Shown here one piece after another: positions 4,897 to 44,945 of a DNA stretch of 64,000 nucleotides. The stretch's first letter is position 1. The number at the start of each line of letters is the position of its first letter. Under the pieces are notes generated by a model. It had not been told where the DNA came from. It made no database searches and saw only the letters and a program-made list of their open reading frames with translations. Source of the DNA: an uncultured Eubacteriales bacterium. Its GTDB lineage: Bacteria > Bacillota > Clostridia > Oscillospirales > Acutalibacteraceae. The position numbers and the translations under genes were made by a program. The DNA lies in contig ONAL01000010.1 of the NCBI GenBank assembly GCA_900315785.1, forward strand, positions 4,437-68,436, written 5' to 3'.

Positions 4897-4929
4897 GCCG
4901 TTATCCGTCAGGGTAACGGCTGAACTTTT
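4897..4929 (+). terminator. rho-independent terminator candidate
   Basis: GCCGTTAtCC-gtca-GGgTAACGGC followed by TGAACTTTT. Confidence 0.5.
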
Positions 4930-5077
4930 GCACAAAAAGTTTTAAAAATAATTTAATTTATTTATAGAAATATGACACCTTTTTAACCGCTTTGGTCATA
5001 ATCGGAATAAAAATTACAGCCAGCTGACAAAAGGTATACAAGATTACCAAATATAGGTTACAGTTTCCGAAAATCTA

Positions 5078-7472: not shown

Positions 7473-7955
7473 ATGCTAAGTGTAAATATTATTTGTATAG
7501 GAAAAATCAAGGAAAAATACTGGACAGACGCAATCGCCGAGTACTCAAAAAGGCTCCGCGCGTTCTGCAAGTTCAGCATAATCGAGCTCGACGAGGAAAA
7601 GACTTACCAGAATCCGAACCCGTCGCAGATTGAGTCAATCCTCAACGCCGAGGGCAAGCGAATTCTTTCGGCGCTCACAAAGGGCTCCTTTGTCGTGCCG
7701 ATGTGTATCGAGGGCAAGAGCCTGAGCTCCGAGGAGCTCGCCGCAAAGCTCGGCGATATCCCTCTCTGCGGCAAGAGCTCGGTGGACTTCATAATCGGCG
7801 GAAGCTGGGGTCTCAGCCCCGAGGTCAAGGCAAGATCCGACCTCAAGCTCTCGATGAGCAAAATGACCTTTCCGCACCAGATGGCGCGCGTCGTGCTCTG
7901 TGAGCAGATTTACCGCGCGTTTGAAATCAACTCCAACGGAAAATATCATAAGTAA
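7473..7955 (+). CDS. rlmH: 23S rRNA (pseudouridine1915-N3)-methyltransferase
   Basis: About 160 aa SPOUT protein; N-terminus IICIGKIKEKY, C-terminal IGGSWGLSPEV and MTFPHQ. Confidence 0.9.
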   Translation: MLSVNIICIGKIKEKYWTDAIAEYSKRLRAFCKFSIIELDEEKTYQNPNPSQIESILNAEGKRILSALTKGSFVVPMCIEGKSLSSEELAAKLGDIPLCGKSSVDFIIGGSWGLSPEVKARSDLKLSMSKMTFPHQMARVVLCEQIYRAFEINSNGKYHK

Positions 7956-40876: not shown

Positions 40877-40911
40877 AGCGGACAGGTTCGCCTGTCCGCT
40901 TTGTTGTTTTT
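40877..40911 (+). terminator. rho-independent terminator after small peptide 2
   Basis: AGCGGACAGG-ttcg-CCTGTCCGCT followed by TTGTTGTTTTT. Confidence 0.85.
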
Positions 40912-40920
40912 ACGCAAAGA

Positions 40921-40944
40921 AAAAGCTCCCTTTCGGGAGCTTTT
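40921..40944 (-). terminator. terminator of the glucokinase gene (usable on both strands)
   Basis: AAAAGCTCCC-tttc-GGGAGCTTTT. Confidence 0.8.
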
Positions 40945-40965
40945 GTCGTTTTGGTTGTTATTGTA

Positions 40966-41937
40966 TCAGAGGCACGCCGCTCCGATAATTCCCGCGTCGT
41001 TGCCGAGGCTTGCGGCACAGATAATTGTCTGCTTGTCGTTGTGCTTTGTGATCCTCTCCTGCTCAACAATTGCTCTGACAGGCGCCAGGAGCGTGTCGCC
41101 CTGCTTGCTTACGCCGCCGCCTACACAGAGGATATCGGGCTGGAAGATGTTGATAACGTTAACGATACCGCACGCAAGGTAGCTTACATACTCGTCGATA
41201 ACCTTCTTACCTGTCGCGTCGCCGTCCTTCATAGCATCGAACGGTGTTTTGCCGTTAACCGCCTCGATGTCGCCGTCAACTGCGTCGAGCATATACGAGA
41301 ACTCCGCCTTTTCGCCGCGGATTGCGTCCTTTGTCTGGTTAATCAGAGCCGTAGCCGAAGCGTATGCTTCCCAGCAGCCGTGTCTGCCGCAGCCGCACTG
41401 CTTGCCGCCCTTGACAATTACCATATGACCGAGCTCAGCACCCGCAAAATTCGAACCGCTGTAGATTTTGCCGTCGATAATAATACCGCCGCCTACGCCT
41501 GTGCCGAGCGTAATGCAAACCGCGTTTTTGCAGCCCTTAGCCGAGCCCGCGAGGAACTCTCCGAGAGCCGCCGCGTTCGCGTCGTTCTCAATCTTAACAT
41601 ATTTGTGGAGCCTTTCCTCCATCATTTTGCTGACTTCCCAGTTGGTGAAGAAGAGGTTCGGTGAGGTCTCAACGATTCTTGTCTCGGGGTTAACCGCTCC
41701 GGGAACGCCGATTCCGACATACGCGATATCGTCCATTGTGAGCTTGGCTTTTTTGATTGCCTTCTTGACAACATCCGCCATGGAATCGCACACATCAGCC
41801 TCGGGACGGGGGATAGCCGTCTTGCAGTCCGCCTTTGCGATAATCTCGTATTCGTTAGCCTTTGTGTCGTGCTTGACAACGCCCGCGACAATGTTTGTGC
41901 CGCCCAAATCAATTCCGACTGTGTATTCTACTGACAT
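40966..41937 (-). CDS. glcK: ROK-family glucokinase
   Basis: DLGGTN N-terminus and ROK zinc motif (GHMVI...CGCGRHGCWE). Confidence 0.9.
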   Translation of the reverse strand: MSVEYTVGIDLGGTNIVAGVVKHDTKANEYEIIAKADCKTAIPRPEADVCDSMADVVKKAIKKAKLTMDDIAYVGIGVPGAVNPETRIVETSPNLFFTNWEVSKMMEERLHKYVKIENDANAAALGEFLAGSAKGCKNAVCITLGTGVGGGIIIDGKIYSGSNFAGAELGHMVIVKGGKQCGCGRHGCWEAYASATALINQTKDAIRGEKAEFSYMLDAVDGDIEAVNGKTPFDAMKDGDATGKKVIDEYVSYLACGIVNVINIFQPDILCVGGGVSKQGDTLLAPVRAIVEQERITKHNDKQTIICAASLGNDAGIIGAACL

Positions 41938-42122
41938 AGGAAAAACCCTCCCTTATTTTTATAGTTTAATTATATCAATGTTAATGGGAAAAGTCTATAT
42001 ATAATCGCAAGTTTCGGCAATAATTTTTTGTAAATCGCGTCTGAGTATAAAAGAGAAAAAACGAGCAAAACGGCGAAATCAAAAGAACGTGAAATCTATT
42101 TTAAAAAATACCGAAAAAAGTG

Positions 42123-42151
42123 TTGACATCCGCGCCTCAAAAGATTATAAT
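42123..42151 (+). promoter_or_regulatory. consensus sigma-A promoter of rplM-rpsI
   Basis: TTGACA, 17-nt spacer, TATAAT. Confidence 0.7.
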
Positions 42152-42185
42152 AACAAGGCACTAAAAAAGTTCAGGAGGAAACGCT

Positions 42186-42614
42186 ATGTCAACTTATATG
42201 GCTAAAAAAGGCGAAATCGATCGCAAGTGGTATGTAATCGACGCTGCGGGCAAGCCCCTCGGCCGAGTTGCCGCTCAGGCTGCCGTTCTCTTAAGAGGCA
42301 AGCACAAGACTACATTCACTCCCCATGTTGATTGCGGCGACCACGTAATCATCATCAACTGCAAGGACGCTGTTTTAACAGGCAACAAGCTCACTCAGAA
42401 GAAATGGCAGCGCCACACAGGCTACATCGGTCACTTAAAGGAAACACGTTACGATACTCTTATGGCTACACGCCCCACAAAGGCTATGGAGCTCGCAGTT
42501 AAGGGTATGATTCCTTCCAATACTATCGGCAGAAGCGCGCTTCTCAGACTTCGTCTGTTCGAGGGCGCTGAACACAACCACCAGGCTCAGAAGCCTGAGG
42601 CTGTAGAAGCTTAA
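42186..42614 (+). CDS. rplM: 50S ribosomal protein L13
   Basis: 142 aa; RKWYVIDA start and conserved L13 core. Confidence 0.97.
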   Translation: MSTYMAKKGEIDRKWYVIDAAGKPLGRVAAQAAVLLRGKHKTTFTPHVDCGDHVIIINCKDAVLTGNKLTQKKWQRHTGYIGHLKETRYDTLMATRPTKAMELAVKGMIPSNTIGRSALLRLRLFEGAEHNHQAQKPEAVEA

Positions 42615-42630
42615 GAAGGAGGAATAAATA

Positions 42631-43032
42631 ATGTACGATAAGGCACCTTATTTTTACGGCACAGGCAGAAGAAAGTCTTCTGTAGCTCGTGTAAGACTTT
42701 ACCAGGGTACAGGTAAGGTAACAATCAACGACAGAGATATCGACGATTACTTTGGTCTTGAGACACTCAAGTTAATCGTTCGCCAGCCCCTCGAGCTCAC
42801 CGAAACAGGCGAGAAGTTCGACGTTGTTTGTCGCGTAAACGGCGGCGGCGTTACAGGTCAGGCAGGCGCAATCCGTCACGGTATCGCAAGAGCTCTCCTT
42901 CAGTATGACAGCGACGCACTCCGTCACGCTCTCAAGAAGGCAGGCTTCCTCACTCGTGACCCGAGAATGAAGGAAAGAAAGAAGTACGGTCTCAAAGCCG
43001 CTCGTCGCGCTCCCCAGTTCTCGAAGAGATAA
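42631..43032 (+). CDS. rpsI: 30S ribosomal protein S9
   Basis: 133 aa; GTGRRK N-terminal region and C-terminal PQFSKR. Confidence 0.97.
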
Positions 43033-43089
43033 TCACATACTTTGGTTATTTATCAGACCTTCCGTTTTTTCGGGAGGTCTGTTCTTTTT
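42993..43089 (+). repeat. copy 1 (functional) of the rpsI 3' end plus terminator module
   Basis: CAAAGCCGC...AGTTCTCGAAGAGATAA, 23 nt, then CAGACCTTCCG-tttttt-CGGGAGGTCTG and TTCTTTTT; this is the rpsI terminator. Confidence 0.9.
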
Positions 43090-43111
43090 GACCACTGAGG
43101 CGTCCTCGGAG

Positions 43112-43195
43112 CAAAGCCGCGACAGTGCTCCAAGAGATAAAAGTTATATTTGTATTTTTTTCAAGGCTTCCGATTGTTGAGAGCCTTGCTTTTTA
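43112..43195 (+). repeat. copy 2 (decayed) of the rpsI 3' end plus terminator module
   Basis: Collinear CAAAGCCGC (9/9), GCTCC, a 10-nt gap, AAGAGATAA (9/9), T-rich spacer, CTTCCGATT inside a re-paired hairpin CAAGGCT/AGCCTTG, then CTTTTT. Confidence 0.7.
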
Positions 43196-43240
43196 TTGAT
43201 CATATTTCTCAAAAAACTTTGTAGTATTTGTCAAAAAACC

Positions 43241-43269
43241 TTGACATTCTGTTAATCGACCAGTATAAT
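43241..43269 (+). promoter_or_regulatory. consensus sigma-A promoter of the islet operon
   Basis: TTGACA, 17-nt spacer, TATAAT, 55 nt upstream of the ATG at 43325. Confidence 0.7.
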
Positions 43270-43324
43270 GTAATGATTTAGATTTAAGTCTAATTGGACG
43301 GATGTGGGCAGAAAGGAGAGTACA

Positions 43325-43981
43325 ATGTATCATTATATCGAAGATAAGGAATATATTCATAAAATGCGTATGCTTTGCGGCGAGGTAATGCAAGGGCTAT
43401 GCCACTGCCTGAAAGAAAATTATGATATCGGAGCTGTGTTTTACTTGGTTGGTAGTGGCGCAAGAAATCTGATTCTTCAAAACGCGGATAAACCTGTTGA
43501 TCTAGATTATAATTTAGAAATTATTAAATGTGAGGATTTTGAAGATTGCCGACATATCAATGATTGTATTCAAAAGTCATTTAATAAAATCCTGCGTGAA
43601 TATTGTTTATCTGACTGTCAAAACTCCACGTCATCGCTCGCTTCTGGAAGAATATATTTTACAAATGGAAATCAAACAGAGTTTTCAATGGATGTTTGTA
43701 TTACATGTAAGGATAATAATGGGAGCTACTATCGTTTGATATGCAAGAAGACAGGTTTTGTGTTCAATGATGAATACTATTGGAACATAGCACCTAAATC
43801 AAAAGAGTTAAAGAAAAGAGCGGATTATATCAAAAAAAGCGGGAAATGGCAATTAGTTCGTCAGCAGTATCTCAAAATAAAAAACAATTATTTGAAACGA
43901 AATGATACAAAAAACCACCCGTCTTTTATTTGTTATATTGAAGCCGTAAACAATGTGTATAATTCAAGGAAACATTGGTAA
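43325..43981 (+). CDS. minimal Pol-beta-superfamily nucleotidyltransferase (218 aa), subfamily unresolved (SMODS/CD-NTase-like by motif spacing)
   Basis: GAAAGGAGAG RBS; G43-S44, 14 residues, D59-L-D61, third acidic residue in FSMD123VCI about 60 residues later; AT-rich codon usage unlike its neighbours. Confidence 0.5.
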   Translation: MYHYIEDKEYIHKMRMLCGEVMQGLCHCLKENYDIGAVFYLVGSGARNLILQNADKPVDLDYNLEIIKCEDFEDCRHINDCIQKSFNKILREYCLSDCQNSTSSLASGRIYFTNGNQTEFSMDVCITCKDNNGSYYRLICKKTGFVFNDEYYWNIAPKSKELKKRADYIKKSGKWQLVRQQYLKIKNNYLKRNDTKNHPSFICYIEAVNNVYNSRKHW

Positions 43982-43995
43982 GAAGGAGGTTAACA

Positions 43996-44676
43996 ATGTA
44001 TTGTAGGAATTGCGGAAGCAAAATTGATGACAATTCAACATACTGTACTCGTTGCGGTGCGAGGATTGATGATATTGTACATCCTAATGATTCCGATGAA
44101 GGTTCAAGTGTTTGGTTTGCTGTTTTAGGATTTTTTATTCCGATTGTAGGGTTTATTTTGTTCCTAGTTTATGAAGGAAAGAAGCCCAAGAGGGCAAAAG
44201 CTGCGGGTAAAGGAGCGTTGATTGGTTTTATAACTAAAATTGCTGTATCAATTATTCTTACGATTTTATATGTTATTTTTGCATCGTCGATATTTAATAC
44301 AATTGTTAACGTAAATGATATAACAGTCCCTAACATCAGTAGTATTTTCCAAGAAGAGAGTACAGATGAAATCCTGAAGAATTATATAGATGTTAGTTTT
44401 GGTGAGTTTAGGGTTTCGGGAGATAAGTATTTGCCTGAAACATCGCTTGATGTTACAGTAAAAAACAAATCGAAAAAACAGTTAAGCTTTTACATAACAA
44501 TAGAAGCAGTGGATAAAACAGGAAAAAGAATAGGGACGGATGAGGTTAACGTTGAGGATTTGAATCCGAGACAGAATGTAACGCTAACAGCTTTTGAATT
44601 TGTAGATGAAGAGATGATACCGAAACTGGAAAAGGCAACATTTCAAGTGTTAAAAGCTGAAAAGTTTGATTATTAG
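43996..44676 (+). CDS. zinc-ribbon protein with two hydrophobic segments and a C-terminal beta-rich domain
   Basis: GAAGGAGG RBS; CRNCG...CTRCG ribbon; VWFAVLGFFIPIVGFILFLVY, KKPKRAKAAGKG, ALIGFITKIAVSIILTILYVIF; soluble tail of about 120 aa; 14 nt after the NTase stop. Confidence 0.7.
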   Translation: MYCRNCGSKIDDNSTYCTRCGARIDDIVHPNDSDEGSSVWFAVLGFFIPIVGFILFLVYEGKKPKRAKAAGKGALIGFITKIAVSIILTILYVIFASSIFNTIVNVNDITVPNISSIFQEESTDEILKNYIDVSFGEFRVSGDKYLPETSLDVTVKNKSKKQLSFYITIEAVDKTGKRIGTDEVNVEDLNPRQNVTLTAFEFVDEEMIPKLEKATFQVLKAEKFDY

Positions 44677-44748
44677 GTTTTGTGAGTTGCTGTGAGATTC
44701 TTTCCGTACACAACACACAAGAAACAAAACAACGCAAAAGCCCTGTAA

Positions 44749-44845
44749 ACAAGCCAACTTTAGCGTTTGAAAAGTTCTCAAAGAGATAATATTTTCTTTA
44801 TGTTTTCTGCAAACCTTCCGATTATTCGGGAGGTTTGTTTTTGTT
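44749..44845 (+). repeat. copy 3 (decayed) of the rpsI 3' end plus terminator module; acts as terminator of the islet operon
   Basis: AGTTCTCaAAGAGATAAT is 17/18 identical to the rpsI end; hairpin CAAACCTTCCG-attatt-CGGGAGGTTTG has identical 8-nt cores and a compensatory G:C to A:T change; then TTTTTGTT. Confidence 0.8.
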
Positions 44846-44945
44846 GAAAAATCGTTTGCGTTATGCCAGACTGGCAGTGTAAGGGAGTGATTGATAATGA
44901 GCTGCAAATCCGAAATTGAATCGCCGCGCAAAAGAGCGGCTTTGA

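Follow-up and report, generated by a model that had tools for sequence, protein, structure and literature searches.

Why should the last codons of a ribosomal protein gene stand three times in a row, each time followed by a transcription terminator, with a patch of AT-rich DNA between the second and the third copy? The question is raised by a 64,000-nucleotide stretch (hereafter the window) of contig ONAL01000010.1, from an uncultured rumen bacterium of the Oscillospirales (family Acutalibacteraceae), and the gene concerned is rpsI, which encodes ribosomal protein S9. We hold it likely, at roughly 85%, that window positions 43016-44790 are a 1.76-kb remnant, devoid of an integrase, of an integrative mobilizable element (IME), that is, a cis-mobilizable element (CIME), lodged in the 3′ end of rpsI. 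The target gene and the parts of the element, in window coordinates, are these:

42631..43032, plus strand: rpsI, the target gene (Pfam Ribosomal_S9, E 2.6e-51).
43016..43033, plus strand: core copy 1, the attL core, AGTTCTCGAAGAGATAAT; the block shared at 95% identity with contig L123 of another genome begins here.
43034..43095, plus strand: imported spacer and terminator 1 (hairpin 43054-43081, -20.0 kcal/mol, T tract, GACCAC), found in the terminator scan.
43096..43123, plus strand: inter-core segment TGAGGCGTCCTCGGAGCAAAGCCGCGAC, shortened; the conserved form found elsewhere is ~50 nt longer.
43124..43141, plus strand: core copy 2, AGTGCTCCAAGAGATAAA, of repeat family D2; it has the same place in L123 and in the conspecific contig L193.
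43142..43195, plus strand: spacer and decayed terminator 2 (hairpin 43162-43188, -11.3 kcal/mol).
43241..43269, plus strand: consensus promoter of the cargo operon (TTGACA-17-TATAAT, 12/12).
43325..43981, plus strand: isl1, 218 aa, predicted nucleotidyltransferase fold like that of cGAS/DncV-like nucleotidyltransferases (CD-NTases), from an AlphaFold2 (AF2) model and Foldseek.
43996..44676, plus strand: isl2, 226 aa, N-terminal zinc ribbon (Pfam Zn_Ribbon_1, E 5e-8).
44712..44772, plus strand: right arm of the element, holding CCCTGTAAACAAGCC at 44741-44755; repeated before each outer core in L123.
44773..44790, plus strand: core copy 3, the attR core, AGTTCTCAAAGAGATAAT, 17/18 identical to copy 1.
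44791..44847, plus strand: spacer and terminator 3 (hairpin 44809-44838, -20.5 kcal/mol).

The 18-nt core AGTTCTCGAAGAGATAAT consists of the final five codons of rpsI, its stop codon and one extra base, and this 18-mer recurs with 83% identity at 43124-43141 and with 94% (17/18) at 44773-44790. The 38-nt terminator block 43054-43091 reappears at 44810-44847 with 84% identity; the stem cores ACCTTCCG / CGGGAGGT are the same in copies 1 and 3, and CAGACC/GGTCTG in the one corresponds to CAAACC/GGTTTG in the other. The 17/18 match, the stem cores and the paired change had been described in an earlier note, made from the letters of the window alone, whose general picture of three collinear copies of the rpsI end and its terminator around an AT-rich islet, with a consensus promoter and two genes of its own, is borne out. 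Indeed, core, spacer, hairpin and T tract are collinear across the three copies in a MAFFT alignment, AAGAGATAA occurs three times in the window, once in each copy, and the GC profile called for in that note gives ~34% in the islet against ~52% in the flanks and 50.6% in the whole window. The Smith-Waterman score of copy 1 against copy 3 is 60, reached by 0/1000 dinucleotide shuffles (15.7 +/- 2.4), and copies 2 and 3, whose likeness the note had wanted to see measured against that expected of AT-rich terminators, score 53, again with 0/1000 shuffles as high; for copies 1 and 2 the score is 28, reached by 1/1000 shuffles and by 5/1000 when the whole region is scanned. Some details had to be corrected. 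The alignment shows copy 2 to lack 12 nt of coding sequence, not 10, and the homology of copy 3 to rpsI begins at 44773 rather than 44749, the preceding 24 nt agreeing with rpsI at only ~7/24 positions (hand count) and aligning with the right-arm repeat of the element in L123. Moreover, the decay that was thought to progress from copy to copy is confined to copy 2, and the hairpin of copy 3 is the strongest of the three.

Close homologues of every copy stand at the rpsI ends of related genomes. In the genome collection the nearest species is L018 (RpsI 94%, RplM 94% and ROK kinase 83% identical), which has one rpsI terminator, AAAACCTCCGATTTATTCGGAGGTTTT, and no islet. Against this terminator copy 3 scores 35, copy 1 scores 20 and copy 2 scores 15, and because copy 3 matches it best, terminator 3 is probably the native rpsI terminator, shifted 1.76 kb downstream. 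The stem of copy 2, AAGGCTTCCG...CGGGAGCCTT, is of the kind seen in the rpsI terminators of L022, L008 and L115; its counterpart in L123 has an uninterrupted 11-bp stem, judged by eye on the sequence. In a further contig (L007, 3031-3081, at the contig end) copy 3 reads AGTTCTCGAAGAGATAATCA, as in copy 1, which reflects either gene conversion between copies or an assembly joined through the repeat.

The extent of the imported DNA is given by L123, a contig of 37.7% GC. Window 43016-44801 aligns with L123 4908-6691 at 95% identity over 1787 nt, and this block runs from core 1 exactly to 11 nt beyond core 3 (44801), taking in terminator 1, the short inter-core segment, copy 2, the promoter, both genes and the right arm; 43034..43095 aligns with the L123 junction J1 without any mismatch. 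Terminator 1, which the earlier note had taken for the native one, hence belongs to the imported unit, and transcription of rpsI is now predicted to end there. L123 itself contains three composite junctions of ~270 nt each, with the order right arm, core, terminator, inter-core segment, core, terminator, and these set apart one cassette of isl1 and isl2 and one with an acyltransferase gene. The array sits behind an AlwI restriction-modification block, whose counterpart in the L199 element (described below) is 88% identical. The right arm of the window is 75-89% identical to the L123 repeats, and an 11-mer of its CCCTGTAAACAAGCC recurs in inverted orientation at the left terminus of the L199 element; such inverted arm motifs would be the pattern expected of binding sites flanking an attP crossover region. 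A long inter-core form with a AAAACAGTCC..GGACTGTTTT hairpin is present in L193, in L123 junctions J2 and J3 and in L035, and the 22-nt spacer between copies 1 and 2 of the window is a shortened form of it. Core copy 2 lies inside the imported unit, and is best read from the alignments as an older att scar travelling within it. BLAST of the 311-nt L123 junction against plasmid and phage collections gave no match, and scans of IMG/VR for CCCTGTAAACAAGCC and GAGGCGTCCTCGGAGC returned essentially chance matches, none of which extended beyond the seed except one of 36 nt. Downstream of the cassette array, L123 10137-10481 carries 4-5 tandem 69-nt units within an open reading frame (ORF) of 386 aa.

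Within the species of the window, the site is found in at least four occupancy states. The first is that of the window: 41 loci with the species' rpsI end, a count in which some contigs enter more than once, show this junction, and wherever the full site was compared the identity is 99.5-100%. In the second, seen in L115 and the short L008, the islet is absent and the order is rpsI, core, terminator A, 57 nt, core, terminator B, flank. L115 is empty for the cassette, yet it has a 137-nt mini-insert of its own with a second copy, and the idea that it is a simple empty site was dropped for this reason. L193 equals L115 plus a 1801-bp core-to-core insertion, consisting of terminator, long inter-core segment, core 2, terminator 2, isl1, isl2, right arm and core, and the 266 nt after this insertion are 99.6% identical to L115; L115 and L193 are a clean empty/occupied pair, and the cassette occurs in two downstream backgrounds, that of the window and that of L193.

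L199 presents the site with a larger occupant. This conspecific contig is 99.86% identical to window 40900-43034 and diverges directly after ...GAGATAAT (43034), beyond which it encodes a tyrosine integrase (350 aa, PF00589), a helix-turn-helix repressor, AAA_25, a Mob_Pre relaxase (PF01076) and, further on, TnpV, two D12 methyltransferases and RE_AlwI. By its gene content this is an integrative mobilizable element, inserted at the same nucleotide as the islet of the window. Finally, in L005 a stretch of 85 unrelated nt (4927-5011) stands instead of window 44636-44843, a swap that removes the end of isl2, the right arm, core 3 and terminator 3. The 85 nt have their own GGGGGAGC...CTCCCCC hairpin, and their right breakpoint is AAAAATCG, which is also the divergence point of the window and L115 haplotypes; the haplotypes differ as whole blocks, from the rpsI stop to 44848. 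A scan of JGI metagenomes with a 35-nt rpsI-end pattern found other species only and no further haplotype of this one.

At the sequence level, all that characterizes a CIME is found here. The direct repeats 43016-43033 and 44773-44790 match at 17/18 positions and bound the block shared with L123; an autonomous relative, L199, starts after 43034 and shares the end motif CCCTGTAAACA; and the difference in occupancy between L193 and L115 is precise. An autonomous mobilizable element would bring its own integrase and relaxase, and phmmer searches of all ORFs of the window with tyrosine-integrase, serine-recombinase and relaxase seeds found nothing, the only relaxase seed being the PF03432-type protein of L098 and Mob_Pre not being among the seeds. 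The islet contains no gene other than isl1 and isl2, and neither the junction nor the islet matches an RNA family of Rfam. Since the integrase is absent here and present in L199, the element of the window is regarded as a remnant and not as a mobilizable element itself, and the suggestion of the earlier note that stranded cargo was left behind without an integrase holds.

In the mechanism that we propose, elements of this family would insert into the last 17-18 nt of rpsI by tyrosine-integrase recombination, each bringing a copy of the rpsI end together with its own terminator. Integration would rebuild rpsI with the imported terminator (attL) and move the original end and terminator to the far side (attR). 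Copy 1 would then be the true rpsI end with an imported terminator, copy 2 an older att scar already inside the imported unit, and copy 3 the right arm and core followed by the native terminator. The boundaries of the cassette, the point of integration, the polymorphism in occupancy and the existence of integrase-bearing elements here are established by the comparisons. As to the responsible integrase and the order of events, we infer that an element of the L199/L123 type gained the cassette by tandem accretion in another host of lower GC, that element and cassette were excised through the far att site of the cassette and then integrated at rpsI here, and that the element afterwards left alone or was lost, stranding the cassette. 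If the remnant were captured by an incoming element and moved along with it, the 95% identity with L123 would be accounted for; this identity suggests that an accreted element may be able to excise and mobilize the cassette in cis. The earlier view of the copies as attL/attR-type scars gains strong support from L115/L193, from L199 and from the rpsI-adjacent integrases of relatives. Its claim that at least two events are implied does not stand for this genome: because copy 2 lies within the imported unit, integration of one composite unit is enough, and two successive integrations were dropped as an explanation, terminator 1, copy 2 and islet forming one block 95% identical to L123.

The site is not new, contrary to what the earlier note had believed. 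In streptococci the 3′ end of rpsI is the target of three families of tyrosine integrases, carried by mobilizable and conjugative elements, where tandem accretion is frequent, partners are decayed and direct repeats are both long and short (PMC5357655, PMC5090054, PMC5704250). IMESag-rpsI and IME_Sag2603_rpsI (Tyr_4, Tyr_5, Tyr_7) use the same gene and the same end by means of a tyrosine integrase, as here; IMESag-rpsI has a MobV relaxase and the L199 relative a Mob_Pre relaxase (PF01076, MobV class); and rpsI-end direct repeats on the flanks, together with tandem accretion, are common to both groups. This likeness is one of target, enzyme type and relaxase class. Unlike the streptococcal elements, the one studied here sits in a rumen member of the Oscillospirales, has lost integrase and relaxase in the window and carries other cargo. 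A three-step model has been put forward for such sites, in which integration is followed by decay to a CIME and by accretion of a new element into the resident att site, transfer of whole composites also being possible (PMC5704250, PMC5357655); the locus fits it point by point, and we count this as support.

According to the accounts in PMC5704250 and PMC5357655 of the original work (Pavlovic 2004, Bellanger 2011), the CIMEs of ICESt1 and ICESt3 in Streptococcus thermophilus have, like the element of the window, attL and attR and no recombination or transfer genes; they lie at a site used by autonomous relatives and form arrays by integration into a resident att site, as here. The window unit differs in being unusually small (1.76 kb, two genes) and in having an extra internal core, and its mobilization in cis is putative. 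As described in PMC3146451, the genomic islands stacked at ssrA in Dehalococcoides are likewise horizontally acquired and mobilized site-specifically at a single-copy housekeeping RNA gene; target (the gene of transfer-messenger RNA), hosts and cargo are different there.

Several observations weigh against our reading. Neither a circular junction nor a single-copy empty site (rpsI, core, terminator 3) was found, and excision and integration are deduced from the comparison of sequences. The sole islet-free conspecific haplotype, L115, has two copies, and its distal terminator is unlike copy 3, so that the history of the site must be more tangled than a single insertion. The window, L115 and L005 haplotypes all part just left of AAAAATCG at 44848, which hints at a further breakpoint at the end of the terminator, outside the model. 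The L199 sequence used excludes the last 1.5 kb of the contig, where adjacency to the cassette would show. The cassette is without the inverted left-end motif of L199, and it may no longer be mobile.

Among the rival explanations the best is that the whole occupied haplotype was received by homologous recombination from a conspecific or close donor, or was simply inherited, the att scars having been made in the ancestor or donor. The near-identity of the 41 loci agrees with it, as does a junction that stays constant despite varied genes upstream of the ROK kinase gene, which is expected of an old, fixed or recombining allele, and so does the blockwise difference of the haplotypes. We regard it as possible, if rather unlikely; it touches the final step only and still needs site-specific integration, and the presence of the cassette in the two downstream backgrounds favours repeated insertion at the core. 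Far less credible is a local duplication of the rpsI terminator region by slippage or unequal crossing-over, with illegitimate insertion of foreign DNA between the copies. It would account for copies that are short, tandem and mutually homologous, terminators included. However, the imported block begins and ends at cores and takes in terminator 1 and copy 2, the core-bounded architecture recurs in L123 and in other genera, and an integrase-bearing element lies at the same nucleotide in L199; unless these are chimeric assemblies, the contigs L123, L199 and L115/L193 contradict a local origin, which we think very improbable.

A third explanation, that the islet was brought by a Tn4451-like mobilizable transposon which acted through its large serine recombinase and later decayed, starts from the cargo. 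In L098-L103 (e.g., L098 492-6968) the isl1-isl2 pair fills the cargo slot of a Tn4451/Tn4453-like mobilizable transposon, laid out as large serine recombinase, TnpW, relaxase, NikA-like protein, cargo and TnpV, whose chromosomal insertion sites differ between genomes; the isl1 homologues of these transposons have ~65% amino-acid identity. The pair is also found adjoining serine recombinases. Yet nucleotide homology (~68%) is confined to 43263-44681, i.e., the genes. No remnant of TnpV, TnpX or the relaxase is found in the window, and the ends of the islet are rpsI cores and a right arm common to the tyrosine-integrase element family; transposons of the Tn4451 type, moved by a large serine recombinase, have no rpsI specificity. 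With recombinase, TnpV/TnpW and relaxase all absent and the homology limited to cargo genes, a Tn4451-like transposon was rejected as the identity of the islet, and as its source it must be rated slightly lower even than local duplication. The promoter touches this comparison in that its -35 box lies outside the stretch homologous to the Tn4451-borne cargo (which starts at 43263) and its -10 box inside, so that it may have been rebuilt at the 43263 junction. The weakest rival, chance likeness of AT-rich intrinsic terminators, could appeal to the modest significance of copies 1 and 2 taken alone, and is practically eliminated by the shuffle test for the other two pairs, by the confinement of AAGAGATAA to the three copies and by the homologues of each copy at the rpsI ends of relatives.

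Returning to the reading of the islet as a CIME, the comparison of the region downstream of rpsI in relatives, which the earlier note had proposed, yielded an empty state, differing copy numbers and integrase-bearing elements alike. Beyond the species, an integrase lies no more than 6 kb past rpsI in 11/80 related Oscillospirales genomes: in 8/80 a convergent tyrosine integrase stands 119-213 nt past the rpsI stop, and in 3 more it lies within 3.5 kb. These integrases belong to at least three families, and four of them share 48-71% identity with that of L199. A complete element of 4.7 kb occupies the rpsI end in L042 (6399-11142), with CTCAAAGAGATA on its flanks and TTGGTCATTG-type arm repeats at both ends; it encodes a Lin1244_N (replication-organiser-like) protein, a CI-like repressor and an integrase, and looks like a small phage satellite. 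Integrase-less remnants between rpsI-end copies are present in L024 (3.1 kb, with a LuxR-type protein and an amidohydrolase as cargo), L088 (1.0 kb), L035 (182 nt) and L030 (45 nt). The sister species of L035, L092, has an rpsI terminator identical to the distal one of L035, and for this reason the distal copy is taken there as ancestral and the rpsI-proximal copy as imported. Hence the rpsI-end hotspot described in streptococci is at work in uncultured Oscillospirales of rumen and gut as well, a known kind of site in a new host group. A two-gene cassette at this site shows 95% identity across genomes that differ greatly in GC content, which would offer a concrete case of a mobilizable element picking up, carrying and dropping small cassettes of cargo.

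The cargo offers the most useful lead, pairing a member of a large, unannotated and tightly conserved family of predicted CD-NTase-like fold with a zinc-ribbon membrane protein. The isl1 family comprises at least 1260 homologous clusters, 65-70% identical to isl1. The protein has no match in PADLOC or NCBIfam and a single weak, sub-threshold match in Pfam; searched as a sequence profile against the PDB, it matched nothing. In a Foldseek search of the PDB with the AF2 model (mean predicted local distance difference test, pLDDT, 76.5), 27/27 best matches are CD-NTases (CdnB, CdnE, CdnD, CdnG, CdnC, DncV), with OAS and cGAS ranking below them; the best E is 1e-5 and TM-scores are <= 0.49. The family alignment shows no variation at G43, S44, G45, D59, D61 and D123. 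For isl2, the AF2 secondary structure shows two long membrane helices and a C-terminal immunoglobulin-like beta sandwich. Foldseek against the PDB returned generic beta-sandwich matches only, and neither Pfam nor the structure search gave a SAVED, STING or Cap15-like match or any recognizable nucleotide-sensing domain. A solo isl1 homologue (66% identity), not accompanied by isl2, occurs in L035 (1258-1902), a Candidatus Fimenecus genome, beside a lipoprotein gene and 4 kb upstream of rplM.

The nearest known arrangement is that of type I cyclic oligonucleotide-based antiphage signalling systems (CBASS), in which a CD-NTase is paired with a membrane effector. The predicted CD-NTase-like fold of isl1, its invariant G-S-G ... 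D-x-D ... D and its membrane-protein neighbour recall such systems, as does the context, the pair being carried by mobile elements and, in L123, lying behind a restriction-modification block. Unlike in CBASS, isl1 has 218 aa against 271-384 aa in the matched CD-NTase chains, and no SMODS or PADLOC model matches. Judging from the models, we tentatively consider a nucleotide-signalling pair in CBASS-like defence or abortive infection plausible. Since mobile elements of no fewer than two unrelated classes carry the pair, and since in L123 it lies behind the restriction-modification block, it is a candidate for a new compact defence module.

A bolder picture can be drawn in which the rpsI end of rumen and gut Oscillospirales is an integron-like cassette platform, and the stranded cassette encodes a very compact, hitherto unrecognized CD-NTase-like enzyme with its membrane effector, a defence pair acting by nucleotide signalling and common on the mobile elements of Clostridia (at least 1260 protein clusters). 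Small cassettes with promoters of their own, each ending in right arm and core, would be stacked, captured and passed between species, the integrases of mobilizable elements working in trans. Taken as a whole, this picture appears doubtful to us. An integron in the strict sense was ruled out, as the window has no integrase, its junctions are rpsI-end copies with terminators and not attC, and Rfam is empty.

Some further features were observed around rpsI in these genomes. A small conserved hairpin, TCCCGAATGGGA, lies in the interval from rpsI stop to terminator in many Oscillospirales; hairpins of this form follow the rpsI stop in L041, L073, L075 and L091, are found in L035 (6590-6605) and L088 (~7430), and occur within some displaced copies as well. 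Tandem short repeats come after the rpsI terminator in L122 (GGGGACAAC x4, ~7560-7680), and TTGGTCAAC-like repeats (x2) stand just past rpsI in L068, L069, L072 and L083; these are probably integrase arm-type sites of further integrated elements. Upstream, rpsI of the window is preceded by the other parts of its operon:

42123..42151, plus strand: consensus promoter of the rplM-rpsI operon (TTGACA-17-TATAAT, 12/12).
42186..42614, plus strand: rplM, ribosomal protein L13 (142-aa ORF; the product in conspecific contigs is PF00572).

Further upstream (window 40966-41937 and beyond), the genes ahead of the ROK kinase gene vary between conspecific contigs (L002, L012, L016), some having LytTR and sigma-70 genes and others an X25/CBM26 amylase-like gene, and this looks like a second variable region near the rpsI hotspot.

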